Shown: positions 19,445-33,417, counted from the stretch's first letter. The stretch is 35,857 nucleotides of DNA from Candidatus Saganbacteria bacterium (GCA_016219705.1 JACRKQ010000062.1:1-35857); one strand, 5' to 3'. The notes: generated from the letters alone by a model not told the origin. Numbers and translations are program-made.

Positions 19445-21181
19445 TCAGCCAATCTTAATCACTCGGTCCACTTTTTCCAGCGCCAATGGCTTGTGGGAGA
19501 CAATGATTATCGTCTTGTCGCGCAAGCGGCGAACAAGCTCTGACAAAATTTTTTCTTCACTGGCAGAATCAAGCGCCGCCGACGGTTCATCCAAGATCAA
19601 AATATCGGGCTCCTTGAGCAAGGCCCGGGCAATCGCCAGACGCTGGATCTGGCCGCACGAAAAATTGTTCCCTTGTTCTTCGATGGTTGCCTCATAACCA
19701 TGTGGCAGGCCAGTGATAAAATCGTGAATATTGGCCGTCCGGCAGGCGGCGACTATATCTTGAACGGCGGCGGTTTCGTTGCCATATCTTAAATTTTCTA
19801 GAATTGTTCCTGATAATAAACGCGGATTCTGCCCGACAAACCCCAGCCTTGCGCGCAGTGATTTAAGGTTGATCCGGCTAATCGGTCGGCCATCATAGAA
19901 AATTTCTCCCTCTTGCAGACGGTAAAAACCAAGCAGGAGATTTAAAAATGTCGACTTTCCCGCTCCGCTGGAACCGACCAGCAAAACATGCTCACGCGCT
20001 TTAATTGAAAAAGATTGTTCTTTGAAAATATATTTAAGGCCATCATAAGAGAAAGAGATATTTTTAAGCTCAATCTTGCCTTCTAATTTAACAATTTTTT
20101 CTTTTTCTTGCCCCTTGCCTCTTGTCTCTTGGTCCTCTCCTTCCGGCAGTATTTCATAAAAAGCGCTGACCCGCTGGAAAGCTGCCAGGGCATTCTGCAA
20201 TTGTAAATTGAAACTCGATAAATATTGTATCGGACTAAAGACATAGGACTGGTAAGCGAGAAAGGCATAGAGAGAACCGAGGCTCCAGTTTTTAGTGATG
20301 ACCAGCGGCAGGCCGATAAGCAAAACAATAAGATATGACAGATCAGTCAGCGAACCAAGCATGGTGCTGGTGATCGAGTTGACCGTCGTCGCCTGCAGTG
20401 AAAGACGATAATTATCTTTTAAGGAAGAACTGATCTTATCGATCTCCTTCTTTTCAGCGGCAAAAGATTTAATTAATGTCGTCTCCGCGATCGCCTCCTG
20501 CAGTTTTTTGTTGACGCGCGCCTGTTGCTCCATCTGGTTGTGGCTTAAGTTCCTGACTTTGCCGGAAAAATATTTGACGATGAGAAAAAAAAGCGGCAGC
20601 AGCAGGAAATTGACCAGCGCCAGCCGCCACTCCAGGAAGAAGAGGAAACAGAGGCCAAAAACAAGCTTTAATATGTTGGTTATAAAATAAGCTAATGTGC
20701 CAGTAAAAAACCACTGCACTCCCTGGACATCATTGGTAATTCGGCTTAAGAGATAGCCGGTTGACTGGTTGTCAAAAAACGATTTTGGAAAATGCATCAC
20801 CCGCGCTATCAGATCGGTCTGCAAATCAAGGAGAACATCACGCCCTAGTTTGGTAAAATAAAAATTTTGCCAGATGCTCGTCAATTTCTCCAGCAATTTA
20901 ACCAGAACAATCAACGGCAAAACAGCGATCAATAAATTCATTTTTCTTCCGAGGATCACATCATCAATCAGATAACGGGTGATGAGCGGCATAAAATAAC
21001 CGAGCGGCGTGAGCAGTAAAACGGCCAAGAAGCCGATGATCAACTGCCGGCGGTAGCGGGCAAAAAGAGGCAAGATATTCTTAAGACTAAAAGTTCCGAT
21101 ATTCCCGACTAAGTTCGCCGGCAGAATCTTGCTGGAAATACCGGATTTAAAATAATTGAGATAATCAATTAATATTTTCAT
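19445..21181 (-). CDS. ABC-B type exporter with fused permease and ATPase. It has no peptidase domain and is a probable exporter of the modified peptide.
   Basis: Six-TM N-terminal half. Walker A GSSGAGKST, signature FSCGQIQRL and Walker B ILILDE. A start at the internal Met (MKILIDYL) gives an ATGA overlap with the upstream HprK-like gene. The ORF track extends it to 21211. Confidence 0.8.
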   Translation of the reverse strand: MKILIDYLNYFKSGISSKILPANLVGNIGTFSLKNILPLFARYRRQLIIGFLAVLLLTPLGYFMPLITRYLIDDVILGRKMNLLIAVLPLIVLVKLLEKLTSIWQNFYFTKLGRDVLLDLQTDLIARVMHFPKSFFDNQSTGYLLSRITNDVQGVQWFFTGTLAYFITNILKLVFGLCFLFFLEWRLALVNFLLLPLFFLIVKYFSGKVRNLSHNQMEQQARVNKKLQEAIAETTLIKSFAAEKKEIDKISSSLKDNYRLSLQATTVNSITSTMLGSLTDLSYLIVLLIGLPLVITKNWSLGSLYAFLAYQSYVFSPIQYLSSFNLQLQNALAAFQRVSAFYEILPEGEDQETRGKGQEKEKIVKLEGKIELKNISFSYDGLKYIFKEQSFSIKAREHVLLVGSSGAGKSTFLNLLLGFYRLQEGEIFYDGRPISRINLKSLRARLGFVGQNPRLLSGTILENLRYGNETAAVQDIVAACRTANIHDFITGLPHGYEATIEEQGNNFSCGQIQRLAIARALLKEPDILILDEPSAALDSASEEKILSELVRRLRDKTIIIVSHKPLALEKVDRVIKIG

Positions 21182-22062
21182 TGACCAATTACCCTTTCCA
21201 TTTGCTCCCAAAACCGCCCGGTCAGGCTGATTTTAAGTTTATAGCAGGGGATATTTCTGGCCAGATGACAGGCATTATCAAAAATTTTCAGCTTGGTCTG
21301 GGTCTCTTCACTCTCCGAATAGGCTCGGAGACTGCGGCGGAACATTTGAAAACCGGCATCGTAAATTGAAACAGCCGCAACATTCTTTTTCATAACCTCT
21401 GCCGCATCATTTTCCGCCTGTTCCAAAAAGAATATTCCCTTAAGCGAATAAAATTGTTCAACCGGCCAATTCTTTTGGCCGTCATTTTTCCATAAATAAT
21501 TGCTCCAGGTCGGAAAAGGATGGACGAAATAGCGGCCAGCCGATTTAAAAATAATCGCCTCATCATCGGAAATCGCCTCCCAGGGATGAGGGATACGGCG
21601 GCAGCAGGTCGATTTGCCGGTATTGCCGGGCGCAGAGAGAAGATAGGCCGAACCTTCTTTGACCACAAGTCCAGAGTGAAAAGGCATGCCCTCTAGCGTT
21701 ATCGCCAGCTCGTGGACAAAATAAAGAAGATACCACATGCAAATTATGTTCATATTGTGGTCCTTATTATTTATATCAACTTTAACGACCAGATGGGAAT
21801 TTTGCGGATGCTGCCATAATTTGAGGTTCTTAAAATCCCTTACCTGCCAGCCGGTTTGAGTCATTTCCGGAATATCTTGCAGCGGAGGAAAATCCTTATC
21901 ACCGTCTTTGGGAAAGATGTAAACTTTCGCTCGATTGTCAGAAGCTTGCGTCGTTTTAAGCCTCATTATCGAAGCTAATTTCCGCAGGAAAGGTTCCACT
22001 TCCGGCTGGCCCGCAACCATCTCCCACTCACGCCCGGCAAACAATCGCAAGAGAAACGGCAT
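21178..22062 (-). CDS. HPr-kinase/phosphorylase-like P-loop protein, copy 1
   Basis: The P-loop LSAPGNTGKSTCC resembles the HprK C-terminal domain. Clear paralog of the protein at 26321..27238. Translationally coupled to the upstream rSAM gene. Confidence 0.65.
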   Translation of the reverse strand: MPFLLRLFAGREWEMVAGQPEVEPFLRKLASIMRLKTTQASDNRAKVYIFPKDGDKDFPPLQDIPEMTQTGWQVRDFKNLKLWQHPQNSHLVVKVDINNKDHNMNIICMWYLLYFVHELAITLEGMPFHSGLVVKEGSAYLLSAPGNTGKSTCCRRIPHPWEAISDDEAIIFKSAGRYFVHPFPTWSNYLWKNDGQKNWPVEQFYSLKGIFFLEQAENDAAEVMKKNVAAVSIYDAGFQMFRRSLRAYSESEETQTKLKIFDNACHLARNIPCYKLKISLTGRFWEQMERVIGQ

Positions 22063-23138
22063 TAGACAATCAATCGCGTACGGGGGAATAATTTTTTATT
22101 ATGAGCCTGCTGGCAGTACCAAAAAGAGGCCCAGAGATTTTTGGTCGAATAATAGTTTTGGGCGAGACAAAACCCCAGACAGCGGTTTTTCATGACGCAA
22201 TCATGGCAAACCCCTTCGAGGTCTTTGGGTAATCCATCACGGATCTTATTTAACATTGGATTATTTTGCCAAACATCGGCCAATTTGTCTTTCGCCGCAT
22301 CGCCAAAGTTAAATTCCGGCACTGTTTCGCCAATGCCGCAGAGCGCGTAGTGTCCGTTGCTTAAAACTCCAATAATGCCAAAAATGCCGCAGGTGCCGCA
22401 ACCGACGGCATTTTCCTTGCCAAAGATCCTCCCCAATGGCCGGAAAGCGACCGGATGGCTGTAGATCAATTTTATCTTGACCTGTTTAGCCAGGGTGTTT
22501 TCAATCCAGGCGCCAAGCTCGACTAATTCTTCCAGGGATAAAGTCTCGTCATTTTCGTGCATCTCTTTACCGCGGGCGGTTGGTTGGATCAAGTTAAATT
22601 TGACCGACCCGGCGCCATTTTTCTCGGCCAACTTGACAACATCTTCTATCTGATCTTTATTACGCCGCATGATCGACATGATGACCTGGGGCTTAAAACC
22701 GGCTGTCACTAAATTTCTGACGCCAGTCCATGCCGCTGCAAAACTTCCGGGGACCCGCCGTACCCATTCGTGGGTGGCGGCGTCCGCCCCGTCGACGCTG
22801 ACCGAAACAAAGGCCCCTTTGGCCGTCTTCATCTTTTGCGCCAATTCTGCTGTGCAGAGAACGCCATTGGTTTCAACCGTCAAATTTAATTTATTGACAA
22901 TAATGTAATCAAGAATAGCCTTGATGTCGGGATGGAGGAGTGGCTCTCCGCCGGTTAATTTAACCCCGGTTAAACCTAACGGTTTTGCCTGCTCAATAAT
23001 TGACTTAAACAAATCAAGCGGCAGAGAAGCAAAAACGTGCTGACCGTTCTGGAATTTCGGCTGGATCCAGCAGTGCCGGCAAAAGAGATTACACCCTTCG
23101 GTCAGGTAGAAATAGATACAGTTTAATTTTGGTGGCAT
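22062..23138 (-). CDS. Radical SAM / SPASM-domain peptide-modifying enzyme, copy 1
   Basis: The CNLFCRHC motif matches CxxxCxxC. The C-terminal Cys cluster (CGTCG...C...CHDCVMKNRCLGFC) is typical of SPASM auxiliary clusters. Confidence 0.85.
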   Translation of the reverse strand: MPPKLNCIYFYLTEGCNLFCRHCWIQPKFQNGQHVFASLPLDLFKSIIEQAKPLGLTGVKLTGGEPLLHPDIKAILDYIIVNKLNLTVETNGVLCTAELAQKMKTAKGAFVSVSVDGADAATHEWVRRVPGSFAAAWTGVRNLVTAGFKPQVIMSIMRRNKDQIEDVVKLAEKNGAGSVKFNLIQPTARGKEMHENDETLSLEELVELGAWIENTLAKQVKIKLIYSHPVAFRPLGRIFGKENAVGCGTCGIFGIIGVLSNGHYALCGIGETVPEFNFGDAAKDKLADVWQNNPMLNKIRDGLPKDLEGVCHDCVMKNRCLGFCLAQNYYSTKNLWASFWYCQQAHNKKLFPRTRLIV

Positions 23139-23141
23139 TTT

Positions 23142-23336
23142 TTATCGCCTGCCGTTTCTGCCTAAACTGGCTAGCTCATCTTTGAGAAAAAGATCCACCT
23201 CTAATTTTTTTGCCCATGATTTTAAATAGGCAAAATTGAGTTTTCCTTTGTTTGCCTGCAATATTTCCCTGACATCTTCCAGGTCTTTTTCCCGATTTAA
23301 ACGCTTTATAACCTCAATTAATAAATTTCTTGTCAT
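23142..23336 (-). CDS. Small hypothetical helical protein, 64 aa
   Basis: Lies 3 nt upstream of the rSAM gene and has a 4-nt overlap with the 62-aa gene. No Cys. No recognisable motif. Confidence 0.35.
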   Translation of the reverse strand: MTRNLLIEVIKRLNREKDLEDVREILQANKGKLNFAYLKSWAKKLEVDLFLKDELASLGRNGRR

Positions 23337-23521
23337 TTTACTTTCGCCATTCTGGCTAGTATTAAGCGGTTACGCTCGGCATGAGTCAAGTTCATTTTTT
23401 CTATCCGCTTCATAAGCTCTTTTTTGCTTAAGGCGGCTTTCATTAAACGAAAGCTAAAATCGGACAAATCCAACCAGGCGCGAATTTTTTCATTTACCGT
23501 TAATTTAATCTTGTGTCTCAT
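23333..23521 (-). CDS. Small hypothetical protein, 62 aa, possibly a ribbon-helix-helix-like regulator
   Basis: Begins with a short beta-strand-like segment KIKLTV followed by helices. First gene of the operon. No Cys. Confidence 0.35.
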   Translation of the reverse strand: MRHKIKLTVNEKIRAWLDLSDFSFRLMKAALSKKELMKRIEKMNLTHAERNRLILARMAKVK

Positions 23522-23599
23522 GTTTTTGACGCCACTATCTATTATAATCAGATGTCTCCGGTATTGTCAACCAGACGGCGCTGGGTGTAAAATCAGATA

Positions 23600-24715
23600 A
23601 TGAGCTCTTTTGTCTTACTTGGCGTCAATAGTTTTAACCCCGCTCTCTGCGACGGCGTTTCCAACAGCATCCTGGAGCTGATGGCTTTTTTGAAAAATAA
23701 AGGCCACCAAGTAAAAATAATTAATTATCTGACAGGAGAACCATACCGTCAGTTTATCTACAAGCAATTCAATAAAAATTCAACGAATTGGCAGGATGTC
23801 GGTTATCAGCTTACGGTCTCCGGCCTTGAAGTTGTGATGCGGCTTTTGCCTGACCGGGAAAAAGCTTCTCAATCTCAAGCGGTCAAACTAATTATGCGGG
23901 AGATAAAAGATTTACAGATAGATTTTGTTTTGACGATCGATAATTGCTTCTCCGCCCTTTTAGTCGCGCATTTGCTGAACATTCCCGGGGCCCATTGGTT
24001 TCATTCGGAAGCATACGTTAAAGAATTTCGCAACAAACCCTATTATCTAATGATGCTAAAAAATCGACAGGTATTGGCAACTTCACAGTATATCCAAGCC
24101 CGCATCAAAGCTTGTCTAGATCTGAATTCAATTGTCTGGTATCCGATCATTGACTTTAACCGCTGCCAAACCACAACCCAGACGACCACGGCTAATAATC
24201 TCGGTTTTTATTCCGGCGGGCCGCATAAAGGGGACGAGCTCGTGAATTACTTGATTGGACAGATGCCAGAGTACAATTTTATTACCGCGGGAAGATTGTT
24301 TCAAAGTATTTTTAAGACGGCTCCAAAAAACCTGGAAATATTAGGCGATGTGGCTGATATTAAAACTTTTTACCAAAAGATAAAATTATTGCTTGTCCCC
24401 TCTTTGGTCCCCGAAGGTTTTGGCCGGGTCATTGTGGAGGCGGCCGCCAATGGCATTCCGACTATTGCCAATAACGTCGGCGGGATTCCCGAAGCGCTGG
24501 GACAAAGCGGCCTATTGGTTGATGTTGAAAATATCAAACAGCCAAATATGCCTTTGTTGGTAAATAGATATCAAAGCATAATCGAACAGCTCTGCAACAA
24601 TAAAACAGATTATGATCTCTGTCAACAGCAAGCTTTAGCGCAAGCAAAAAAATATAAATTTTTACAGGAGCAGATGAATAATGAAAACTATCGCCTTATT
24701 ACTGGTAAAAAATGA
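23600..24715 (+). CDS. Glycosyltransferase, GT-B fold (family 1/4-like)
   Basis: The C-terminal motif EGFGRVIVEAAANGIPTIANNVGGIPE is typical of GT1/GT4 nucleotide-sugar binding. Confidence 0.75.
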   Translation: MSSFVLLGVNSFNPALCDGVSNSILELMAFLKNKGHQVKIINYLTGEPYRQFIYKQFNKNSTNWQDVGYQLTVSGLEVVMRLLPDREKASQSQAVKLIMREIKDLQIDFVLTIDNCFSALLVAHLLNIPGAHWFHSEAYVKEFRNKPYYLMMLKNRQVLATSQYIQARIKACLDLNSIVWYPIIDFNRCQTTTQTTTANNLGFYSGGPHKGDELVNYLIGQMPEYNFITAGRLFQSIFKTAPKNLEILGDVADIKTFYQKIKLLLVPSLVPEGFGRVIVEAAANGIPTIANNVGGIPEALGQSGLLVDVENIKQPNMPLLVNRYQSIIEQLCNNKTDYDLCQQQALAQAKKYKFLQEQMNNENYRLITGKK

Positions 24716-25637
24716 AGGTTGGATCTTGCCGACCACGCTACCTCAACTGAATAAATTTGTTGACGAAATCCTCGTCCTTGATACCAGCTCAACAGATAAT
24801 TCGCTAGCTATTTTAAAACACCTTAACATCTCTTTTCGACAGAAGAAATATGACACGCCGATAATTGACAATTCTGTCTGGCGGACAGAATTGCTGGATT
24901 GGGGACGCAGCCGCGGCGGGACCCACTTTGTCTGCCTGGACGCAGACGAAGCTTTTACTTCTCATCTCCTCCCGCATTTTAATGAATGGTTAAGCCGGCT
25001 GGAGCCTGGGGAAAAATTAATGCTTGATTGGCTGACCACCTGGAAAAGTCCGACCAAAATCAGAGTTGATAATTCCATTTGGAAAAAGATTCCCAAAGAT
25101 TTTATTTTTCGCGATCAAGCCGGCTTGCAGTTTGACGGGCAAACAATGCATGAGAACAGAACTCCAGGAAGTGGTAAGGCTAAATATGTGCCTCGCGAAA
25201 GAGGGGCGGTTTGGCATTTCCAATTTGCCGCTTTTGCCAGGTTTCAAATGAAGCAGGCTTTTTATCGAGTTAAGGAATTAAATGATAAAGGCCAGGCGAT
25301 GGATAATTTTAAATTAATCGACAGGATCAATAATTTTTACTCGATAACTTTGGATAATAGCGCCGCCCAGTGCGCAGATGCGCCAAAAAATTGGTACAGC
25401 GGCCTGCAAAATCTGGATAATATAAAAAATGCGCCGATGGGCTGGTTTTTACCGGCCATACTTGATTATTTCGCGCAAAAAGGGCTTGAGTATTTTGAGC
25501 CGCTGCAGATTTGGCACATTTCAGACCTTGAGGCCGAGTTTAGGCAAAAAATTGGCCGCGGTCCGAGATCGCTGTCACTGCCGCCTAAGCCGCGGATTGT
25601 CTCTTCTTCATGTCTTATGGGAGCTGATTCCTGGTAG
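24681..25637 (+). CDS. Putative glycosyltransferase, GT-A/family-2-like
   Basis: N-terminal IALLLVKNEG...ILVLDTSSTDNS and a later CLDADE motif. Confidence 0.5.
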   Translation: MKTIALLLVKNEGWILPTTLPQLNKFVDEILVLDTSSTDNSLAILKHLNISFRQKKYDTPIIDNSVWRTELLDWGRSRGGTHFVCLDADEAFTSHLLPHFNEWLSRLEPGEKLMLDWLTTWKSPTKIRVDNSIWKKIPKDFIFRDQAGLQFDGQTMHENRTPGSGKAKYVPRERGAVWHFQFAAFARFQMKQAFYRVKELNDKGQAMDNFKLIDRINNFYSITLDNSAAQCADAPKNWYSGLQNLDNIKNAPMGWFLPAILDYFAQKGLEYFEPLQIWHISDLEAEFRQKIGRGPRSLSLPPKPRIVSSSCLMGADSW

Positions 25638-26336
25638 TTGGTATTGTTCAATGATGGCAGCGAAAGCGCTTTTTTCCCGCTCAAAAATTTCTGTAAATTT
25701 TTCTTTGTCCAGGGTCAACTTAATAGTTGTATTGTGTTGATGCCAAATGTAATGGGCCAGGTCGATAACTGTCCTCTGGCCATTTTTCCTGGCCATCTGG
25801 TAGATAAAATCGTCGCCAAAGAACAGTTTTATTGGCGCGGGGATATTTTGCCATTCTGATCGCCGGCCAAAAATAAACCAGCCAATCCGTTCAAATTTTA
25901 ATTTATGTTCCGCGCCTAAATCTTGGAGATTAGGAGGATGATTTTGTCCTTTAAACAATCTGCTATACAAATCTGGGTGAAGATTATCCAGGCTTCTAAA
26001 AGTGACAAGCCCGATAGTCGGGTCTTGAATAATCTTCTCGCCTTTGCTTATAACCCGATCCCAAATTAAGCAATCATCGTTCAGCAGCAGGTAATAATCG
26101 GTTGTGGCCTGTTTAAGTCCCAAATTCCAGCTCTCATTAACATTAAAACGTTGATTAAAATGCGTTACTTTTAATCTGGGAGAGGAGCAATATTTTTTGC
26201 ATTCATTATCAAGGGTATTATCAATAATATGAATATAGCAATTTTGAGTCAGCAGCAAGTCCAGACTTTTCTCCAACATTTGCGGCGCCTGATTTAGACT
26301 GGGGATGATAACTGTGGTGTTTATCGTTTTAGGCAT
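25608..26336 (-). CDS. Glycosyltransferase family 2-like, short (242 aa)
   Basis: VIIPSLNQ...IIDNTLDN and LLLNDDCLIW (DxD-like) motifs. Overlaps the 3' end of the HprK-like copy 2. Confidence 0.6.
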   Translation of the reverse strand: MPKTINTTVIIPSLNQAPQMLEKSLDLLLTQNCYIHIIDNTLDNECKKYCSSPRLKVTHFNQRFNVNESWNLGLKQATTDYYLLLNDDCLIWDRVISKGEKIIQDPTIGLVTFRSLDNLHPDLYSRLFKGQNHPPNLQDLGAEHKLKFERIGWFIFGRRSEWQNIPAPIKLFFGDDFIYQMARKNGQRTVIDLAHYIWHQHNTTIKLTLDKEKFTEIFEREKSAFAAIIEQYQLPGISSHKT

Positions 26337-27238
26337 GTACTACTAAATACATTTTTTGTTAATTCATAATTGTTGATCGCCACCTCCATCTTATTCCAAA
26401 ATCGGCCGGTTAAGGTAAAATACAGGCGATGACAGGGAAGAGTACGAGTTAAGTTATAGGCATTATTGAATATTTTTAATTTCATCTTTGTAATTTCTTT
26501 TTTTGGAAAGCCGCTTAAATTTCGATGAAATATTTGCATCGCCCCATTATAAACAGCACCGATAGTAGTATTGTGACGTAATGATTCCACTCCATCTTCC
26601 ATCGCTTGTTTAAGAAAAAAAAATCCTGCTAGCGGATAAGCTTTTTCCACTGCCCAAGTTTTTTGATCAACATTCTCCCTGCAAAAATTACTAAAAGTTG
26701 GTAAGGGGTGTACCCAATATTGAGAGCCATGCTTAACAATTAGTGTTTCGTCATCAGCCAACGCTTGCCAAGGGGAGGGAATTCTTTGACAACAGGTCGA
26801 TTTCCCAGTGCCAGCAATAGCGGGGAGCAAATAAGCTTTGCTCTCTTTAATCACCATCCCCGCATGAAATGGCAGTCCGTCGGCATTAATCATCTCCTTA
26901 TATATATAAGTCAAAAGAAAGGATAAACAGTGTATCTCCATATGGCTATTTGGAGATGGGTCAAAACCAACTATTAAATGCGGCTCCTGGGGATGATCCA
27001 AAATCTTCACAGTCCCAAAATCTCGTACCCGCCAGTCGGGAGAAAAAAACTTCATTATTTTTTGATGGAATAGTTTTTCATTATTCAAAGAATAGAAATA
27101 TATTTTAGTATGATGAGAAATCGGAGCAACAATCAGCTGCATAATTGCGGCTAGTTTTTTTAACAATGCTTTGGCTTCCTTGCCAACGGCAACTAACTCC
27201 CACTTATGTCCATCAATCAAACGTAAAAGATAAGACAT
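26321..27238 (-). CDS. HPr-kinase/phosphorylase-like P-loop protein, copy 2
   Basis: P-loop LPAIAGTGKSTCCQRIPSPW. Collinear similarity to copy 1 throughout (LLRL...GxxWE, HAGMVIKESKAYLL, WVHPLPTFSNF). Starts 6 nt after precursor 1. Confidence 0.65.
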   Translation of the reverse strand: MSYLLRLIDGHKWELVAVGKEAKALLKKLAAIMQLIVAPISHHTKIYFYSLNNEKLFHQKIMKFFSPDWRVRDFGTVKILDHPQEPHLIVGFDPSPNSHMEIHCLSFLLTYIYKEMINADGLPFHAGMVIKESKAYLLPAIAGTGKSTCCQRIPSPWQALADDETLIVKHGSQYWVHPLPTFSNFCRENVDQKTWAVEKAYPLAGFFFLKQAMEDGVESLRHNTTIGAVYNGAMQIFHRNLSGFPKKEITKMKLKIFNNAYNLTRTLPCHRLYFTLTGRFWNKMEVAINNYELTKNVFSSTCLKR

Positions 27239-27244
27239 TAACCG

Positions 27245-27463
27245 TTATGAAGCGGTGCCGCCAGCAGAACAGCTACCTCCATTCCCTCCCTCGTTACATG
27301 CATAATTACTTAAACCGATGCCGCAAGACGAGAGAGGAGTCGAAGCTGATGTCCCGGTGACACAGCGATTTGTAGCGCTAGCCCCAGGACTACACTCTGC
27401 TGCAAATACTGAAACATTAAAAGAATCTTCTAAACATGGCTTCTCATACTTTATCTTTTCCAT
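27245..27463 (-). CDS. Precursor peptide 1, 72 aa. The leader carries the motif KIKYEKP. The core is Gly/Ser/Thr/Ala-rich with 6 Cys.
   Basis: MEKIKYEKPCLEDSFNVSVFAAECSPGASATNRCVTGTSASTPLSSCGIGLSNYACNEGGNGGSCSAGGTAS. A strong RBS AAGGGGG sits 8 nt upstream of the ATG. Confidence 0.7.
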   Translation of the reverse strand: MEKIKYEKPCLEDSFNVSVFAAECSPGASATNRCVTGTSASTPLSSCGIGLSNYACNEGGNGGSCSAGGTAS

Positions 27464-27493
27464 TTTTTCTACCCCCTTATTATTTTTCCCTTT

Positions 27494-27802
27494 TTACCCC
27501 ACCGGTACTTCGACTTTCGTCAAGCGGCTTTCAACACCATCCAGCCGCCGATCCTGCTCCCGATCTTTCCCAACTGCCAAAGTCCTGTCCTCTCGCGCTT
27601 TGACTAGCTCGTCCATCACACCGTCTAATTTATTCAAAACATCATCTTTATGCTGTTTGCTCTCTTCCCGCAATTGCTTCATTTCTCCTCTCATCTCATT
27701 CTTAAACTGCGCTAAATCTTCCTTCGTTGCAAAGTTTTTCAAATCTTCCTTCGTTGCGAAAACTGTCTTTAATTTAGTGATATCCTTATCCGTAATTGCC
27801 AT
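27494..27802 (-). CDS. Hypothetical charged coiled-coil protein, 102 aa
   Basis: Highly charged helical sequence with a duplicated FATKEDL motif. RBS AGGTGA. Lies between rSAM copy 2 and precursor 1. Confidence 0.4.
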   Translation of the reverse strand: MAITDKDITKLKTVFATKEDLKNFATKEDLAQFKNEMRGEMKQLREESKQHKDDVLNKLDGVMDELVKAREDRTLAVGKDREQDRRLDGVESRLTKVEVPVG

Positions 27803-27840
27803 TTTTTCACCTCTACAAAATCATTTTACCTAGATATCTA

Positions 27841-27870
27841 ATTATCGCAAATTTACCGAAAACTTGTCAA
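27841..27870 (-). promoter_or_regulatory. Sigma70-like promoter inside the cluster: TTGACA, 18-nt spacer, GATAAT
   Basis: On the minus strand, TTGACA is the complement of 27865-27870 and GATAAT the complement of 27841-27846. It lies upstream of the 102-aa gene and precursor 1. Confidence 0.4.
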
Positions 27871-27878
27871 CAACAAAC

Positions 27879-28997
27879 TCATGGCGCTGTCGCCACCAAG
27901 TTTTCGTCGGGCAAAACGCCCCCCTGGGACAGGAATTTTTTCAGGCAGGCATCGGGGCTGGGGCCGTATATTTCCCCCGTCAAGGTGTAGGAGAGCGCCG
28001 GGCAGCCGCCGCGGCAATAAGAAATATATTCGCAAGCACGGCAATCTGCAAATCTGTCGAGCGGAATTTCTCGCCGCTGCCTGAATTTAATCAATTCTGG
28101 GTGGTTAAGCCAGATGTCTTTTAGGTTCTCTTGATTTATCCGGCCCAGTTCAACGTCGTTGATCTGCGCGCAAGGAACGATAACCCCATCCGCCCGCACC
28201 GCCAATTTGCTAAAAACACCGCCGCAGCTGGTTAACAAACCGCAACCTCCTTCTCCTTCTCGCCCTTCTCGTTGAGCTTTTACCATTTTTAACCAGAATT
28301 TTGCTTCTGCCAGTGGACCAGCGGCGGCCGAAATACGATTACCATATTTTTGAATCAATTTTAACAAAGAGTTCATGGCAACTGTTCGTTCCGCCGGTGT
28401 CAACTGGATCTCATCAGAATTTTTCTGGCACAAACCAAGATAGGAGGCGGAATTGGTGGAAAATCCCGGCAAACCTAGGTCTTCAATAAGTAATTTGGCG
28501 ACATTTTCGAGATCATGGACATTATAGCGGTTGATGGTAACACGAACGGTTGTTGATAATTTGTATTTTTGCAGCTGCTTGACGGCGGCGACAGCTTTAA
28601 GGAATGTCCCTTGGCCGCGGCTGGCCTCGTGGATAATGGGCTGGGAACCGTCGATGGAGACCTGGACACTGTTGCAGCGTTTAGTCGCCGCTAAAAACTC
28701 CGCCCACTCTTCGGTAATTAAGGTGCCATTACTTAGGAGGCTAAAGCGCAGCCTGTTTTTGATAATGCCGTTGATAATCTCTTTTAAGTCAGAGCGAAAG
28801 AAGGGCTCGCCACCGGCCAGGCAGATATTAAAAACGCCGATTTTAGTTGCTTCCTCAAAGAACTTCAGCCATTCGGCCGCTGGAAGATCCTTTTCCACAC
28901 TGCCTGTACTGGTAAAATGGCTGCAATACTTACAGCGCAGGTTGCAATTGTTGGTAATATTAATGTCTACCCCTGACGGGGCGCTAATAAGTTTCAT
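27879..28997 (-). CDS. Radical SAM / SPASM-domain peptide-modifying enzyme, copy 2
   Basis: CNLRCKYC matches CxxxCxxC. C-terminal Cys-rich SPASM region (CGLLTSCGG...CAQ...CRACEYISYCRGGC). Lies 10 nt downstream of precursor 2. Confidence 0.85.
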   Translation of the reverse strand: MKLISAPSGVDINITNNCNLRCKYCSHFTSTGSVEKDLPAAEWLKFFEEATKIGVFNICLAGGEPFFRSDLKEIINGIIKNRLRFSLLSNGTLITEEWAEFLAATKRCNSVQVSIDGSQPIIHEASRGQGTFLKAVAAVKQLQKYKLSTTVRVTINRYNVHDLENVAKLLIEDLGLPGFSTNSASYLGLCQKNSDEIQLTPAERTVAMNSLLKLIQKYGNRISAAAGPLAEAKFWLKMVKAQREGREGEGGCGLLTSCGGVFSKLAVRADGVIVPCAQINDVELGRINQENLKDIWLNHPELIKFRQRREIPLDRFADCRACEYISYCRGGCPALSYTLTGEIYGPSPDACLKKFLSQGGVLPDENLVATAP

Positions 28998-29006
28998 AAG
29001 ACTCTA

Positions 29007-29210
29007 TCATCCTACTCCAGTTCCCGAATTGCATAAAGGCGGCGCACCTGGGGCGGAAGTCCCGCTAATACACCCATTAGCGCCAGTGGCCGATGTCCCA
29101 GTATTGCAATTATCAGTTGCAGAACTTCCTGTGCTACTACAGGGAGCCGCCTGCACTTCTCCAGAAAAATCTACCAGCTCTGGTTTCTCATACTTGATCT
29201 TTTTTTGCAA
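29007..29210 (-). CDS. Precursor peptide 2, about 67 aa from a TTG start. Same leader and core motifs as precursor 1. The core has 4 Cys.
   Basis: (M/L)QKKIKYEKPELVDFSGEVQAAPCSSTGSSATDNCNTGTSATGANGCISGTSAPGAPPLCNSGTGVG. RBS GAGGGG sits 6 nt before the TTG at 29210. The ORF track extends to 29420, but no ATG lies near the conserved leader. Confidence 0.6.
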   Translation of the reverse strand: MQKKIKYEKPELVDFSGEVQAAPCSSTGSSATDNCNTGTSATGANGCISGTSAPGAPPLCNSGTGVG

Positions 29211-29238
29211 ATTTATCCCCTCATTGTCAACAAACAAT

Positions 29239-29267
29239 TTTACACCAAAATAGTTATCTTGTATAAT
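29239..29267 (+). promoter_or_regulatory. Sigma70-like promoter for mtnP: TTTACA, 17-nt spacer, TG-TATAAT. It gives a near-leaderless transcript.
   Basis: TTTACA at 29239-29244. TGTATAAT at 29260-29267. The first in-frame ATG overlaps the -10, so the start is more likely the ATG at 29275. Confidence 0.4.
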
Positions 29268-29274
29268 GGTAATC

Positions 29275-30009
29275 ATGGTAAAAATTGGTATTATCGGCGG
29301 TTCGGGGTTAGACAATCCTGACATTTTAAAAGAGGCCGTCGACAAAAGTGGCGCCAATAAATACGGCCAGCCATCTTCTCCCCTAGCCTGCGGCAAAATC
29401 AACGGCGTGGCAGTCGTCATCCTGTCCCGCCATGGGCGCGATCACAGCATCATGCCGACCAAAGTTAATTTTTTAGCTAATGTGTACGCGCTGAAAGAAG
29501 AAGGCTGCACCCATATCCTGGCTGCCACAGCCGTCGGTTCGCTGCGAGAAGAGATCGCGCCCGGCAACCTGGTCTTTCCGTCGCAATTTATCGATTTTAC
29601 CCGCCGCCGCAATTTAACTTTTTTCACCGATCATGTCATCCATACCCCGATGAGCGATCCTTATGATAAACGATTGACCGATATTTTATGCCAGACTTGC
29701 GGCGAATTAAATTATAAATATAACCATGATGTCACGGTTATAACCATTGAAGGGCCCCGCTTCTCAACTCGGGCGGAGAGCCAGATGTTCCGCGCCTGGG
29801 GCGCTGATATTATTAACATGTCGACCTGTCCGGAAGTTATCCTGGCCAATGAGCTGGGGATCCCCTATCAGACCATCGCTATGTCAACAGATTACGATTG
29901 CTGGAAAGAAGATGAAGCGCCGGTCACTTTTGCCATGATCATGGAGCGAATGAAGGAAAACGCTGACAAAGTCAAAAATCTGTTAATTAACGTCGTCAGG
30001 AGGATATAA
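29275..30009 (+). CDS. mtnP: S-methyl-5'-thioadenosine phosphorylase / purine nucleoside phosphorylase
   Basis: [11 protein letters not shown]-terminus and [17 protein letters not shown] motif. The ORF track starts at 29266. Confidence 0.85.
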
Positions 30010-30536
30010 TGCCGATCAAATCACGGATCAGAACAGTGCCGCATTGGCCGAAGAAAGGAATCATGTTCCGGGATATCACGACGCTATTAAAGGATCCAGT
30101 CGGACTAAAAATCTGCATCGATGATTTTTTGAACCGCTACAAAGACAATAAAATTGATATTGTCGTCGGTATTGATTCGCGCGGCTTTATTCTCGGCGGC
30201 GCCCTGGCCTATTTATTAAATAAAGGGTTTGTCCCGGTCCGTAAAAAGGGGAAACTGCCGGCGGAGACAGAGAAAGAGGAATATACGCTGGAATATGGCA
30301 CAGATGTTATTGAGATCCACAAAGACGCCATTGAGCAGGGGCAAAAAGTTCTCATCATTGATGATTTGATCGCCACCGGCGGGACCGCTCTGGCCGCCGC
30401 GAAATTAGTGCAGAAACTCGGCGGTGAGATCGTCGAATTAGCTTTTATGGTTGATTTGCCTGATTTAGGCGGCAGGAAAAAATTGGCAGCGGCCGGTTAC
30501 AAAGTATACGCGCAAACGGAATTCGCCGGGGAATGA
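30009..30536 (+). CDS. apt: Adenine phosphoribosyltransferase
   Basis: PRPP-binding motif [13 protein letters not shown]. 175 aa. Confidence 0.85.
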
Positions 30537-31531
30537 AAGTCAAAGGTCAACATTATCGGACCATTTGGTTTGCCCCGCCTGTTGTCTTCTTAATCGAACA
30601 AAATCTCCTCCCTTTTTCTTTTCAAATCGTTAAATGCGCTGATTTTCAGGCGACTTGCCGGGCAATTAAAAATATGACCGTGCGCGGGGCTGGAGCGATT
30701 GGCGCGGCGGCGGGGTTTGCCATGGCGCAAGCTTTATTAGCCAAAGTTGATCCGCTGAAAGCCAAAAAAGAGATCGAAGCGACGCGGCCAACCGCGCAGA
30801 ATCTGTTTTACGCGGCAGAGCGGGTCTTCCAGGCCGCCGATCCTGTCGCTTGCGCCCAAAAGATCGCCGACGAAGACGCCGCAAGCTGCCAGAGAATCGG
30901 CGAGCTTGGCAGTCAATTAATTATAGACGGAATGAGAATAGAAACACATTGCAACGCCGGCTGGCTGGCGTTTGTCGATTATGGCACGGCTCTTGCGCCC
31001 ATTTACGCCGCCAGAGATCAGGGCAAAAATGTTTTTGTTTATGTCGATGAAACACGGCCGCGCGGCCAGGGAGCGCGCCTGACCGCCTGGGAATTATTCA
31101 ATGAAAAAATTCCGCACGCGATTATTCCCGATAACGCCGGCGCCTCCTTAATGTCGCAGGGGAAAGTTGATATGGTAATCGTCGGCGCTGACCGCATCGC
31201 CGCCAATGGCGACGTTGCCAATAAGATCGGCACTCTGGAAAAAGCGCTTGCCGCCCATGAATATGGCATCCCCTTTTACGTCGCGGCGCCAACGGCAACC
31301 ATTGATTTGCAGTGCGCTTCCGGCCAGGACATCCCGATTGAAGAAAGAAGTGAAAAGGAAGTTACTCACCAGTCGGGTATTAATGAAGAAGGCCAAAATT
31401 CCACTATCCTGGTCTGTTCCCCCGGATCAACGGCGTATAATCCGGCATTTGATGTTACTCCCGCCAAATACATCACAAAAATCATCACGGAGAGAGGGGT
31501 TGTGGCTGCTCCAGCAGCTCTTTTTCTTTGA
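30533..31531 (+). CDS. mtnA: S-methyl-5-thioribose-1-phosphate isomerase (eIF-2B-like family)
   Basis: [18 protein letters not shown] motif of the MtnA/eIF2B family. 4-nt overlap with apt. Confidence 0.8.
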
Positions 31532-31763
31532 GAGAATTGATAAACTCTTCCACATCTGCGGCGACGTTTTCCGGCACATTGTCGCAAGATTCTTTTACTC
31601 TGGCGATAATTTCTGCAACCTCGTTTTTACCGTCTAATAATTTGGTCACAAGCACCGAAGTCGGGTTGAGTCCAAAAGTATTCCCCGTATCCGGATCAAA
31701 CAATACCCCCCATTCATCCAGTTCCTCCCGCAAAACAATCGAATCAAGCAATTTTGGCTGCAT
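31485..31763 (-). CDS. PqqD-family protein (RiPP recognition element-like peptide chaperone)
   Basis: 92 aa. Motifs VLFDPDTGNTFGLNPTSVLVTKLLDGKNEVAEIIARV...[14 protein letters not shown] match the PqqD pattern (LN-T---I---LDG---V-EI...V-EFL--L---GLI). Confidence 0.7.
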   Translation of the reverse strand: MQPKLLDSIVLREELDEWGVLFDPDTGNTFGLNPTSVLVTKLLDGKNEVAEIIARVKESCDNVPENVAADVEEFINSLKEKELLEQPQPLSP

Positions 31764-31801
31764 CTTTCATTCCCTCCCTTTGGTTTATTCTCGCAAATTA
31801 A

Positions 31802-32302
31802 TCATGGCCTTGTCAACAACGAATTCAGGCGATAATTGAGCCGGCCGGTCATATGCCGGCAGGCGCGGCGCAGTTTTTTATTAAGCAGGAGTTTTAAGGC
31901 CGGGGCAAGACAGCGATAAAAATAATGAGACATAATGTTATAGAAAGCGCGCTGATCCTGCCGTGTGAACATCTGCCGCCTTCCCCGAAAAATCTCTTTC
32001 ACCCGCCCGATGATCTGCTCGCTTTTGATGCTGCTGGCCGTCAGATTATTATCCCCTTTTTCCAGGAAACTTATTTCCCGGCTATTTTTGTTAACGCGAA
32101 CAATGCGATGGCAGATCAATTTCCCATACCCCTGAAAAACAACGATATCCCCGGCTTTGATGGCTTGAGGCAGGACATTTTCCAGAAAAATAACGTCCCC
32201 TTCTTTAAGGGTCGGCGCCATGCTCCGGCCGATAAGTTTGGAGACTTTAAATTTCTTTAATTTCTGCAGCGGGGATAATTGGTTAATGTCTATATTATTC
32301 AT
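31802..32302 (-). CDS. S24/S26-family (signal-peptidase-I-like) serine peptidase and putative leader peptidase
   Basis: GRSMAPTLKEGDVIFL matches the S26 Ser box (SMxPTL). GDIVVF follows downstream. A start at the internal Met gives an ATGA overlap with the upstream gene. The ORF track extends to 32368. Confidence 0.6.
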   Translation of the reverse strand: MNNIDINQLSPLQKLKKFKVSKLIGRSMAPTLKEGDVIFLENVLPQAIKAGDIVVFQGYGKLICHRIVRVNKNSREISFLEKGDNNLTASSIKSEQIIGRVKEIFRGRRQMFTRQDQRAFYNIMSHYFYRCLAPALKLLLNKKLRRACRHMTGRLNYRLNSLLTRP

Positions 32303-33417
32303 TGCCTTTTTTTTGCAAAAAAACTGCCGTAAAACACCATCATAGGATACCATAGATAATGCCGCCAAGTAATCTCGTCAGCAGAGCGCAGGTTAAAAGC
32401 TGCAACAACCTTATCGCGATGAGGGATGAAATAAGGCCCGATAACGGGAAACAATTCTTGCGGTGAATCTAAGATCAATAAGCGCCAAAAATACCTGCGC
32501 CCTTTATTACCGGATATTATCAGTTTATACGGAAATTTTGTGATGAGAAAACGGTTAATAAAAGAAGTTTTTGGCAGCCTTATTAATAATTTTTCAGGGG
32601 AATCAACTTTCAATAACTCGCGCCTTAATCTCAAACATAATAAAAAAGCCTTGGTCATATTATAGCTTTTGATTAGACCAATAAATTTATCCCAATCAAT
32701 TTCCTGCTCATATCTTAGGATAATTTCCGAAACGTCGACCAATAACTTTAAAGAGGCGAAGGACTTATAAAAGAACATGATCAGAGCATGCAGTAAGAGG
32801 ATCTCGGGTGGAAACATTTTATATTGGAAACCGGCAATATTTTCTGATCGAATATCCCGCCATAAAATCTCCGGCGGGATGCGACAGCGATTGAATGGCG
32901 CCAGATTCCAATGGATCTCCACTCCGCCAATTTCTGGGTGCGTTAAAACTAAATGCTGGCTTTGTTCCAGAAAATATTCCTCTGACAAAGACTCAATACT
33001 TTTCCAGCCGGAATTAATCAATAAATCCCGGGTCTTAATCAGCTCGTTTTCCCTGACCAGGAAATCAATATCGCTGGAATGGCGTAAAGCAATATTGCCA
33101 TAAATTAATTCGGCCCAGACGGGCCCTTTCAGCGCTATAAAGTCGATTCCTTCTTCTGCCAATAATCTAAAAATTTTCTTCTGTCTGGCGTCCAAAGTTA
33201 GGTTATGGATGAGATTATAACGGTAAATTGCCTGTAATGAGGCTTTAGCCGCCGGGGGGATTGATTTATCTCTAAGGTTTAAATATAATAGCGGCGCCAC
33301 CTGGTTGACCAGCGCCAGATCGATTAAATGATCCCAATCGATTTTCCCGTTTAAGAGAGTGTTAATTGCAGAAGTATCTGCTCTGGTTTTAGCGCAAGCA
33401 AAAAGCAATTGGTCCAT
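32299..33417 (-). CDS. Putative nucleotidyltransferase-family protein of the type often found with PqqD-like genes
   Basis: 372 aa. The GPVWAELIYGNIALRHSSDIDFLV region resembles a minimal nucleotidyltransferase fold motif (G[SG]...D.D). Confidence 0.45.
   Translation of the reverse strand: MDQLLFACAKTRADTSAINTLLNGKIDWDHLIDLALVNQVAPLLYLNLRDKSIPPAAKASLQAIYRYNLIHNLTLDARQKKIFRLLAEEGIDFIALKGPVWAELIYGNIALRHSSDIDFLVRENELIKTRDLLINSGWKSIESLSEEYFLEQSQHLVLTHPEIGGVEIHWNLAPFNRCRIPPEILWRDIRSENIAGFQYKMFPPEILLLHALIMFFYKSFASLKLLVDVSEIILRYEQEIDWDKFIGLIKSYNMTKAFLLCLRLRRELLKVDSPEKLLIRLPKTSFINRFLITKFPYKLIISGNKGRRYFWRLLILDSPQELFPVIGPYFIPHRDKVVAAFNLRSADEITWRHYLWYPMMVFYGSFFAKKRQ

Follow-up and report, generated by a model that had tools for sequence, protein, structure and literature searches.

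Two ScmC paralogs of the PEP-carboxykinase/HPr-kinase fold in a peptide-maturation cassette of Candidatus Saganbacteria

The two ScmC genes and their cassette

A stretch of 35,857 nucleotides from Candidatus Saganbacteria bacterium (GCA_016219705.1 JACRKQ010000062.1:1-35857), called the window below and always meant at its full length, carries two genes for ScmC, a protein of the SynChlorMet (SCM) cassette. Copy 1 (21178..22062, minus strand) encodes 294 aa of a P-loop protein with the fold of phosphoenolpyruvate carboxykinase (PEPCK) and HPr kinase (HprK); its P-loop, APGNTGKSTCC, lies at 21601-21633, and the residues of the catalytic set are His129, Lys150, and Asp166-Asp167. Copy 2 (26321..27238, minus strand) is more divergent and encodes 305 aa, with the P-loop AGTGKSTCC at 26789-26815, with His125, Lys146, and Asp162-Asp163, and with HPLPTFS in place of the motif HPFPTWS. 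The two proteins are collinear from end to end and share 44% identity in BLASTP (129/292 residues, 4 gapped positions, E=3e-89). An earlier reading of the same DNA, referred to as the original prediction, had described a pair of collinear paralogs of 294 and 305 aa with these Walker-A-like loops, and both the ORFs and the loops are present exactly as it gave them.

The start codon of copy 1 overlaps the stop codon of the upstream radical S-adenosylmethionine (rSAM) gene, ScmF (TAATG), and its stop codon overlaps the start codon of an ABC exporter gene (ATGA). Because of these overlaps, the translational coupling of copy 1 to both neighbors, which had been proposed, can be taken as real. Copy 2 begins 6 nt past the stop codon of a 72-aa precursor gene (ScmA2) and overlaps the downstream gene for a GT2-family glycosyltransferase by 16 nt. 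The idea that each kinase-like gene directly follows an rSAM or precursor gene is thus borne out, copy 1 standing after the rSAM gene and copy 2 after the precursor gene.

The cassette is split in two putative transcription units with one ScmC each. The unit with copy 1 is headed by two overlapping small ORFs of 64 and 62 aa (23142..23521, minus strand), which are rich in Lys, Leu, and Glu and contain no Cys; they have no Pfam or NCBIfam match and are not found in other SCM loci. They are followed by the rSAM/SPASM maturase ScmF (22062..23138, minus strand; Pfam Radical_SAM and SPASM), ScmC copy 1, and the ABC exporter (19445..21181, minus strand), a permease plus ATPase of the MsbA/bacteriocin-exporter type (Pfam ABC_membrane 159 bits, ABC_tran 110 bits). 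The first gene of the other unit is an ORF of 102 aa (27494..27802, minus strand), predicted to form a coiled coil and containing the internal short repeat TKEDLKNFATKEDLAQF; it has a single sub-threshold Pfam match, and no homolog of it was found in 80 related loci. It is followed by ScmA2, ScmC copy 2, and the GT2-family glycosyltransferase (25608..26336, minus strand; 242 aa, Glycos_transf_2 43.8 bits). A sigma-70 consensus scan placed a promoter-like site, as a consensus match only, in front of each unit: a perfect TTGACA-18-TATAAT (12/12) at 23541..23570 on the minus strand, upstream of the small ORFs, ScmF, copy 1, and the exporter, and a TTGACA-18-GATAAT with extended TG (11/12) at 27841..27870 on the minus strand.

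Between the two units, divergent from the copy 1 unit, lie two genes on the plus strand, one for a GT4-family glycosyltransferase (23600..24715; 371 aa; Glyco_trans_1_4, Glycos_transf_1, and Glyco_transf_4) and one for a GT2-like protein (24681..25637; 318 aa) with a weak Glyco_tranf_2_4 match of 23.1 bits, under the gathering score. The remaining cassette genes are all on the minus strand: the rSAM/SPASM maturase ScmE (27879..28997), the precursor gene ScmA1, the PqqD-family peptide chaperone ScmD (31485..31763), which would serve as RiPP recognition element (RRE; RiPP, a peptide that is synthesized by ribosomes and modified after translation), an S26/S24-type homolog of signal peptidase I with an SMAPTL box, the putative leader peptidase (31802..32368; TIGR02228 73.6 bits against a cut-off of 51.85), and an NTP_transf_5 "uncharacterised nucleotidyltransferase" (32299..33417; PF14907 165.8 bits). 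By blocks, the order in the window is NTP_transf_5/S26/ScmD, a salvage operon MTAP-APT-MtnA, ScmA1/ScmE, the coiled-coil ORF-ScmA2-ScmC2-GT2 unit, the two plus-strand glycosyltransferase genes, and the unit of the two small ORFs with ScmF-ScmC1-ABC.

Assignment to the ScmC family

Copy 1 matches TIGR04249 (ScmC, SynChlorMet cassette) with 249.9 bits, its residues 3-291 covering model positions 1-291 of 292, and copy 2 matches the same model over its full length (residues 3-287) with 214.8 bits; the curated NCBIfam cut-off is 125 bits. Both ORFs are found at 100% identity in the protein database under the NCBI name [quoted passage not shown] The motif series of the family, H...GKSTCC.R.P..W...DD...HPFPTWS...GRFW, is recognized in both copies, and neither departs from the 26 columns, the catalytic set among them, that do not vary in an alignment of 39 ScmC sequences (A1). 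The other cassette members agree with this assignment: ScmF scores 571.7 bits on TIGR04251 and ScmE 548.5 bits on TIGR04250, both above the cut-off of 400, and ScmD scores 89.5 bits on TIGR04248, just below 100, and 58.9 bits on Pfam PqqD. Their identity as ScmC proteins of PEPCK/HprK fold is close to certain. ScmC is already catalogued and named, as a family without assigned function and a "conserved hypothetical" component of SCM.

Membership in the HprK-related kinase families A and B, with the two copies falling into two distinct paralog families, had been envisaged and is not supported. The copies match the model for kinase A along some 50 residues surrounding the P-loop, at 19.5 and 25.9 bits where the cut-off is 200, and the model for kinase B gives no match. 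An A-versus-B assignment was therefore rejected, the scores being far under the cut-off and both copies being sister paralogs within the single named family ScmC. The partner protein of those kinases, PqqD_rel_X (TIGR04353), is likewise not recognized in ScmD, which scores 22.9 bits against 35 and fits the ScmD model better. A check against Hpr_kinase_C also failed to bear out the prediction, as Pfam assigned no family to the window copies and TIGR00679 gave no significant match. The absence of an HprK N-terminal domain had been predicted correctly: none is detected by Pfam.

Genomic context of ScmC

An exhaustive profile search (E<=1e-30) returned 939 ScmC clusters at 50% identity. The cassette is widespread and occurs in Deltaproteobacteria, Chlorobi, anammox bacteria, Omnitrophota, Saganbacteria, and methanogenic archaea. 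For comparison, 80 related loci were collected by a scan with one genome per species, from Deltaproteobacteria, Chlorobi, Brocadiia, Omnitrophota, Aminicenantes, Saganbacteria/Margulisbacteria, Methanocella, and Methanothrix; counts of 81 SCM loci are these 80 and the window. The usual gene order is ScmD-ScmE-ScmF-ScmA-ScmC-S26, followed by NTP_transf_5 and the ABC exporter in either order. When the nearest identified same-strand gene within 400 nt of ScmC is taken as its neighbor, the upstream one is the ScmA precursor in 49/75 cases and ScmF in 9/75, and the downstream one is the S26/S24 signal-peptidase homolog in 49/73. In the 34 loci whose flanks reach 6 kb or more on each side, ScmD is present in 31, ScmA in 30, S26, ScmE, and ScmF in 27 each, the ABC exporter in 22, and NTP_transf_5 (PF14907) in 19. 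Glycosyltransferases are found in a minority, 6/34.

Homologs of the GT4 gene of the window occur in four related loci, L034 (1980-3263), L078 (12073-13296), L069 (5117-6301), and L035 (11459-12709). In two of them, both from Saganbacteria, the gene stands between ScmD and ScmA (L078) or directly after two tandem ScmC genes (L034). This recurrence of GT4 homologs in SCM loci suggests that certain lineages glycosylate their SCM peptides. A compact form of the cassette, ScmA-ScmC-S26-ABC-NTP_transf_5, is found between SecY and a RACo-type gene in the complete chromosome of a deltaproteobacterial metagenome-assembled genome (CP070770.1; L039, 9752-14669); neither an rSAM nor a PqqD gene lies within 10 kb of it. 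The system may exist here in a form free of rSAM enzymes; alternatively, its rSAM genes may be encoded at another place in the genome.

Fusion proteins were considered as hints to function. In a metagenomic protein of 494 aa (P0206), an ScmC domain is joined to a methyltransferase domain at the C-terminus, of the class I SAM-dependent type (Methyltransf_11/25), and one Cys of the P-loop has been lost, giving GKSTSC. Neither this fusion nor a second protein, P0157, which is likely a chimera, is informative on the substrate, and both were set aside.

Fold and catalytic residues

ScmC has the P-loop phosphotransferase fold of PEPCK and HPr kinase, and the residues typical of this fold, a His, the Walker-A Lys, and an Asp-Asp pair, are all present. 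GKSTCC, the His upstream of it, and the Asp downstream of it are invariant in the 39 aligned sequences, where the second Asp (Asp167 in copy 1) is conserved to at least 90%. In a second set of 81 further ScmC sequences, the G, K, and T of the P-loop, the His, and the first Asp are conserved to 100%, and the S and the first Cys to 95-96%. Because GKSTCC, His, and Asp are invariant in the 39-sequence alignment, the P-loop is no chance match, and the conservation across homologs on which the original prediction depended is found. Searches with hmmsearch and hhalign place His129, Lys150, and Asp166-167 of copy 1 onto the H, GKS, and ADD of HprK. In the hhalign comparison of the ScmC profile with a Lactobacillus casei HprK segment (82.7% probability), PFH129..GxxLL..G-K150-S-T..D166-D167 lies on SMH..GVLI..GKSE..ADD. 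The predicted resemblance to the C-terminal domain of HprK/P consequently stands at the level of the superfamily, where His, P-loop Lys, and Asp-Asp align with HprK and are conserved, and does not extend to membership in HprK-related kinase A or B.

Judged by sequence, ScmC appears nearest to HprK-related kinase A, whose model is matched below threshold by 39/39 ScmC sequences (best 3.9e-10), that of kinase B being matched by 8/39. Pfam Hpr_kinase_C is matched by 12/39 (E 0.004-1) and TIGR00679 by 2/39. The best structural matches of ScmC are PEPCKs, with about 80% of the chain covered at 9-12% identity, and the predicted model of copy 2 (predicted local distance difference test score, pLDDT, 91.1) has the same fold as copy 1. 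The PEPCK match spans about twice as much of the ScmC chain as the HprK match, and therefore the N-terminal part of ScmC, about 120 residues, is not an HprK N-domain. HprK carries a signature loop in the region that is held in ScmC by HPFPTWS (residues 181-187 of copy 1). Furthermore, the P-loop is directly followed by an invariant Cys-Cys (153-154 in copy 1), and a third Cys is nearly invariant (NAC, residue 265). Since the PEPCK coverage, HPFPTWS, and the Cys-Cys pair are all unlike HprK, ScmC is regarded as a separate family of the PEPCK/HprK-like fold.

The extent of the PEPCK match raises the possibility that the substrate of ScmC is not a peptide at all. ScmC might then act, in a PEPCK-like manner, on a small molecule or a sugar destined for NTP_transf_5 or the glycosyltransferases, or on a protein partner, and the glycosyltransferase genes and the nucleotidyltransferase-like gene next to the cassette would fit such a role. 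Yet glycosyltransferases are confined to 6/34 loci, whereas adjacency to ScmA is the rule; ScmC, with 294-305 aa, is roughly half as long as the matched PEPCK chains (514-605 aa); and the only characterized relatives from RiPP clusters act on the precursor peptide (PMC9266682). This reading is considered decidedly unlikely.

Duplication of ScmC

One kinase per module had been proposed as a pattern of the system, and the related loci speak against it. A single ScmC gene is found in 74/80, two in 4, four in 1, and none was detected in 1; the window is the fifth locus with two copies. More than one ScmC is thus found in about 7% of the 81 SCM loci, and the arrangement in the window is a local rearrangement. 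In a neighbor-joining tree of 83 full-length ScmC sequences with 100 bootstraps, the window copies are each other's closest relatives (99/100) inside a Saganbacteria/Margulisbacteria clade, and the duplication is therefore lineage-specific. It is a modest variation of that lineage.

In other loci ScmC has been duplicated independently. A Methanocella locus (L053) has the order ScmA-ScmC-ScmF-ScmA-ScmC with sister copies, and the copies in two further loci (L032 and L043) come from different clades. For the Saganbacteria locus with the tandem ScmC pair adjoining a close homolog of the window GT4 (L034), a common origin with the window duplication was considered, but its partial ScmC groups with window copy 2 in only 36/100 bootstraps.

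Copy 2 has changed more than copy 1. At the 35 columns that are conserved to at least 90% in the 81 other ScmC sequences, copy 1 agrees in 34 and copy 2 in 30, and copy 2 alone replaces the Trp of HPFPTWS, which is otherwise 100% conserved. Among 5.8 billion proteins, copy 1 is the only relative of copy 2 that exceeds 37% identity. One of the copies, likeliest copy 2, could accordingly be a decaying or non-catalytic duplicate without a separate function, as its longer branch, the lack of an ortholog above that identity, and the five deviating columns, including the Trp, would allow. Against this, the ORF of copy 2 is intact and of full length, the 26 invariant columns with the catalytic set are kept, the model is confident with an unchanged fold, and the gene fits closely between its neighbors, the GT2 gene and a precursor gene whose Shine-Dalgarno sequence is strong. 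Decay of copy 2 is very unlikely.

The ScmA precursors

The ScmA family was delineated by jackhmmer, which gave 96 small-ORF matches in related loci; 95 were kept, the one dropped being an ScmC ORF. Two members lie in the window. ScmA-type precursor 1 (29007..29210, minus strand) has 67 aa if it starts at the TTG at 29210, which is preceded by the Shine-Dalgarno sequence GAGGGG; it has the leader QKKIKYEKPELV and four C-x-x(x)-G-[ST]-S-A repeats, and it matches TIGR04252 weakly (17.2 bits) and the jackhmmer family with E=1.5e-23. ScmA-type precursor 2 (27245..27463, minus strand; 72 aa; jackhmmer E=3.7e-20) has a strong Shine-Dalgarno sequence, the leader MEKIKYEKPCL, five C-x-x-G repeats, and the end ...GGTAS. 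It is atypical, since its leader contains a Cys and its repeats are degenerate. As further precursor candidates, the two small ORFs in front of ScmF were considered and rejected, because they are without Cys, leader motif, or family match.

In the family, the leader follows the consensus [KR]-x-[YW]-E-K-P-x-L, and the core is built of repeats of 10-11 residues of the form C-x-x-G-x-[S/G/T]-A. The cores have on average 5.5 Cys and about 20% Ser plus Thr; G is found at +3 from the Cys in 79% of repeats, and S/T is enriched at +4 to +5. The last residue is Ser in ScmA2 and Gly in ScmA1. A C-terminal Ser acceptor in the style of lasso peptides was considered as a family rule and discarded, because Ser is the last residue in only 10/83 ScmA cores.

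The single Cys per repeat, at a fixed offset to Ser/Thr, brings to mind an activating role, which the original prediction had also named. Lanthipeptide synthetases of classes II-IV use phospho-Ser/Thr as a leaving group. By analogy, ScmC would phosphorylate the Ser/Thr of the repeats, the phosphate would leave to give dehydroalanine or dehydrobutyrine, and the Cys would add to form lanthionine-type thioethers. However, no lyase or cyclase homolog was recognized among the conserved SCM genes, and Ser/Thr at +4/+5 is conserved to 36-35% only, with Gly often in its place. The core of the cassette, moreover, includes two rSAM/SPASM enzymes, and in sacti- and ranthipeptides it is enzymes of that kind that usually form the Cys-derived thioethers. 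Phosphorylation as an activating step is therefore quite unlikely.

Possible function of ScmC

The preferred reading is that ScmC is an NTP-dependent peptide Ser/Thr kinase acting on ScmA, and we give it about an even chance of being correct. ScmC would phosphorylate hydroxyl side chains of the leader-bearing ScmA, and the likeliest acceptors would be the Ser/Thr that recur in the C-x-x-G-x-[S/T]-A repeats. Phosphorylation would precede removal of the leader by the S26-type peptidase and export by the ABC transporter. Copy 2 has presumably become specialized, either for the atypical second precursor or for a different site. As a speculation, NTP_transf_5 and the three glycosyltransferases may build on the phosphate.

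Several observations weigh against a peptide kinase of the HprK type. Pfam recognizes no family at E<=0.01 in either window copy, and the link of ScmC to HprK is weak at the level of sequence; in a sequence-profile search of PDB chains, L. casei HprK is in the top three with E=1.4, which is not significant. The closest structural match, PEPCK, is a small-molecule enzyme and not a protein kinase. HPFPTWS, invariant in the family, has no counterpart in the alignable HprK segment, and neither it nor the Cys-Cys after the P-loop is explained by a simple kinase model. On the side of the substrate, the last residue of the ScmA core is variable (G in 15, S in 10, and P in 10 of 83 cores, among others). 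Finally, no experimental paper on the SynChlorMet cassette or ScmC was found in the literature searched.

Some of these features would suit a protein that binds rather than modifies. As a scaffold or gatekeeper, ScmC would hold the precursor, and binding or hydrolysis of NTP would hand ScmA over to the rSAM enzymes or license cleavage by S26. The position of ScmC between the precursor and S26 genes is consistent with this, as are the extra ScmC copies that adjoin precursor genes in the window and in the Methanocella locus (L053) and the invariant surface motifs HPFPTWS and GRFWE, which kinase chemistry does not account for. Yet a full set for metal binding and phosphoryl transfer (His, Lys-Ser/Thr, and Asp-Asp), kept invariant, exceeds what nucleotide binding needs, and leader binding of the RRE type is already supplied by ScmD. 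A purely scaffolding ScmC is rather unlikely.

If ScmC is a peptide kinase, a wider picture can be drawn, and we hold it to be doubtful in its entirety. The cassette would define a new RiPP class, in which Cys-rich repeats are cross-linked by the two rSAM enzymes and phosphorylated by ScmC at the repeat Ser/Thr, with phosphoglycosyl extension by NTP_transf_5 and the glycosyltransferases in Saganbacteria and with one ScmC paralog per precursor.

Other features of the window

The MTAP-APT-MtnA operon (29266-31531, plus strand) is inserted in the SCM cassette on the opposite strand, between ScmA1/ScmE and ScmD. It comprises MTAP (TIGR01694 290 bits), adenine phosphoribosyltransferase, and MtnA (TIGR00512 362 bits). 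MTAP, APT, and MtnA salvage methylthioadenosine (MTA) and 5′-deoxyadenosine, the latter a by-product of radical-SAM enzymes. The placement of an MTA-salvage operon beside two rSAM genes may be functional or coincidental.

Directly upstream of NTP_transf_5 and on the same strand, a polysaccharide-export protein of 805 aa is encoded (33423-35840, minus strand; Poly_export and four SLBB). It may place some of the glycosyltransferase content in a surface-polysaccharide locus and not in the RiPP cassette. Neither the Rfam scan nor the tRNA scan gave a match in the window.

Comparison with known systems

The two proteins agree with ScmC as catalogued (TIGR04249; precomputed Pfam PF27840), since both match it at full length above the cut-off and stand beside ScmD, ScmE, ScmF, and ScmA-like precursors. 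The canonical cassette is D-E-F-A-C-S26 with one ScmC, whereas in the window ScmC is present twice and the cassette is broken into two units by the MTA-salvage operon and three glycosyltransferase genes. What is new here is the structural assignment, the mapping of motifs, the statistics of context, and the lineage-specific duplication. Taken together, the fold, the catalytic set, and the placement between precursor and peptidase turn the "conserved hypothetical" ScmC into an assayable hypothesis of peptide phosphorylation.

The nearest family by sequence would be HprK-related kinase A/B (TIGR04352/TIGR04355; HPr-rel-A system), which has a similarly placed P-loop, a length of about 280-300 aa, and a PqqD-family partner; ScmC and ScmD differ from it in falling far short of the respective cut-offs, as given above. 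In contrast to HprK/P, ScmC has no detected HprK N-terminal domain, has HPFPTWS for the signature loop, and stands in a context unrelated to the phosphotransferase system (PTS): there is no PTS gene among the annotated neighbors at 19445-33417, which are RiPP maturation genes. From the ATP-, GTP-, and PPi-dependent PEPCKs, it differs in its low identity, in being about half the size, and in its context of peptide maturation.

The most instructive comparison is with the kinases of lasso peptides. PadeK, ThcoK, and PsmK, members of the HprK family, phosphorylate the linear, leader-bearing lasso-peptide precursor, and their His-Lys-Asp-Asp motif is essential (PMC9266682). The same motif is found in ScmC, as His129, Lys150, and Asp166, all invariant, and Asp167, conserved to at least 90%. 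By motif and description, the two systems are alike in the HprK superfamily, the location in a RiPP cluster, and the nucleotidyltransferase and ABC exporter nearby. In pseudomycoidin, a lasso peptide, PsmN, an "uncharacterised NTP transferase," adds a hexose to the phospho-Ser (PMC9266682, PMC6993621), and NTP_transf_5 (PF14907) can be likened to it through its description as an uncharacterised nucleotidyltransferase. The pairing of ScmC with NTP_transf_5 and the glycosyltransferases of this lineage therefore suggest, speculatively and by analogy, an elaboration like that of PsmK and PsmN. Should this be so, RiPP kinases of the HprK type would not be confined to lasso peptides, and the recurrent pairing of a kinase with NTP_transf_5 would be a general tailoring module. 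The two systems part in other respects: the lasso genes, the B1/B2 protease and the C cyclase, were not recognized among the annotated cluster ORFs, the C-terminal Ser is not conserved, and the SCM precursors, unlike those of lasso peptides, are Cys-rich repeats modified by rSAM enzymes.

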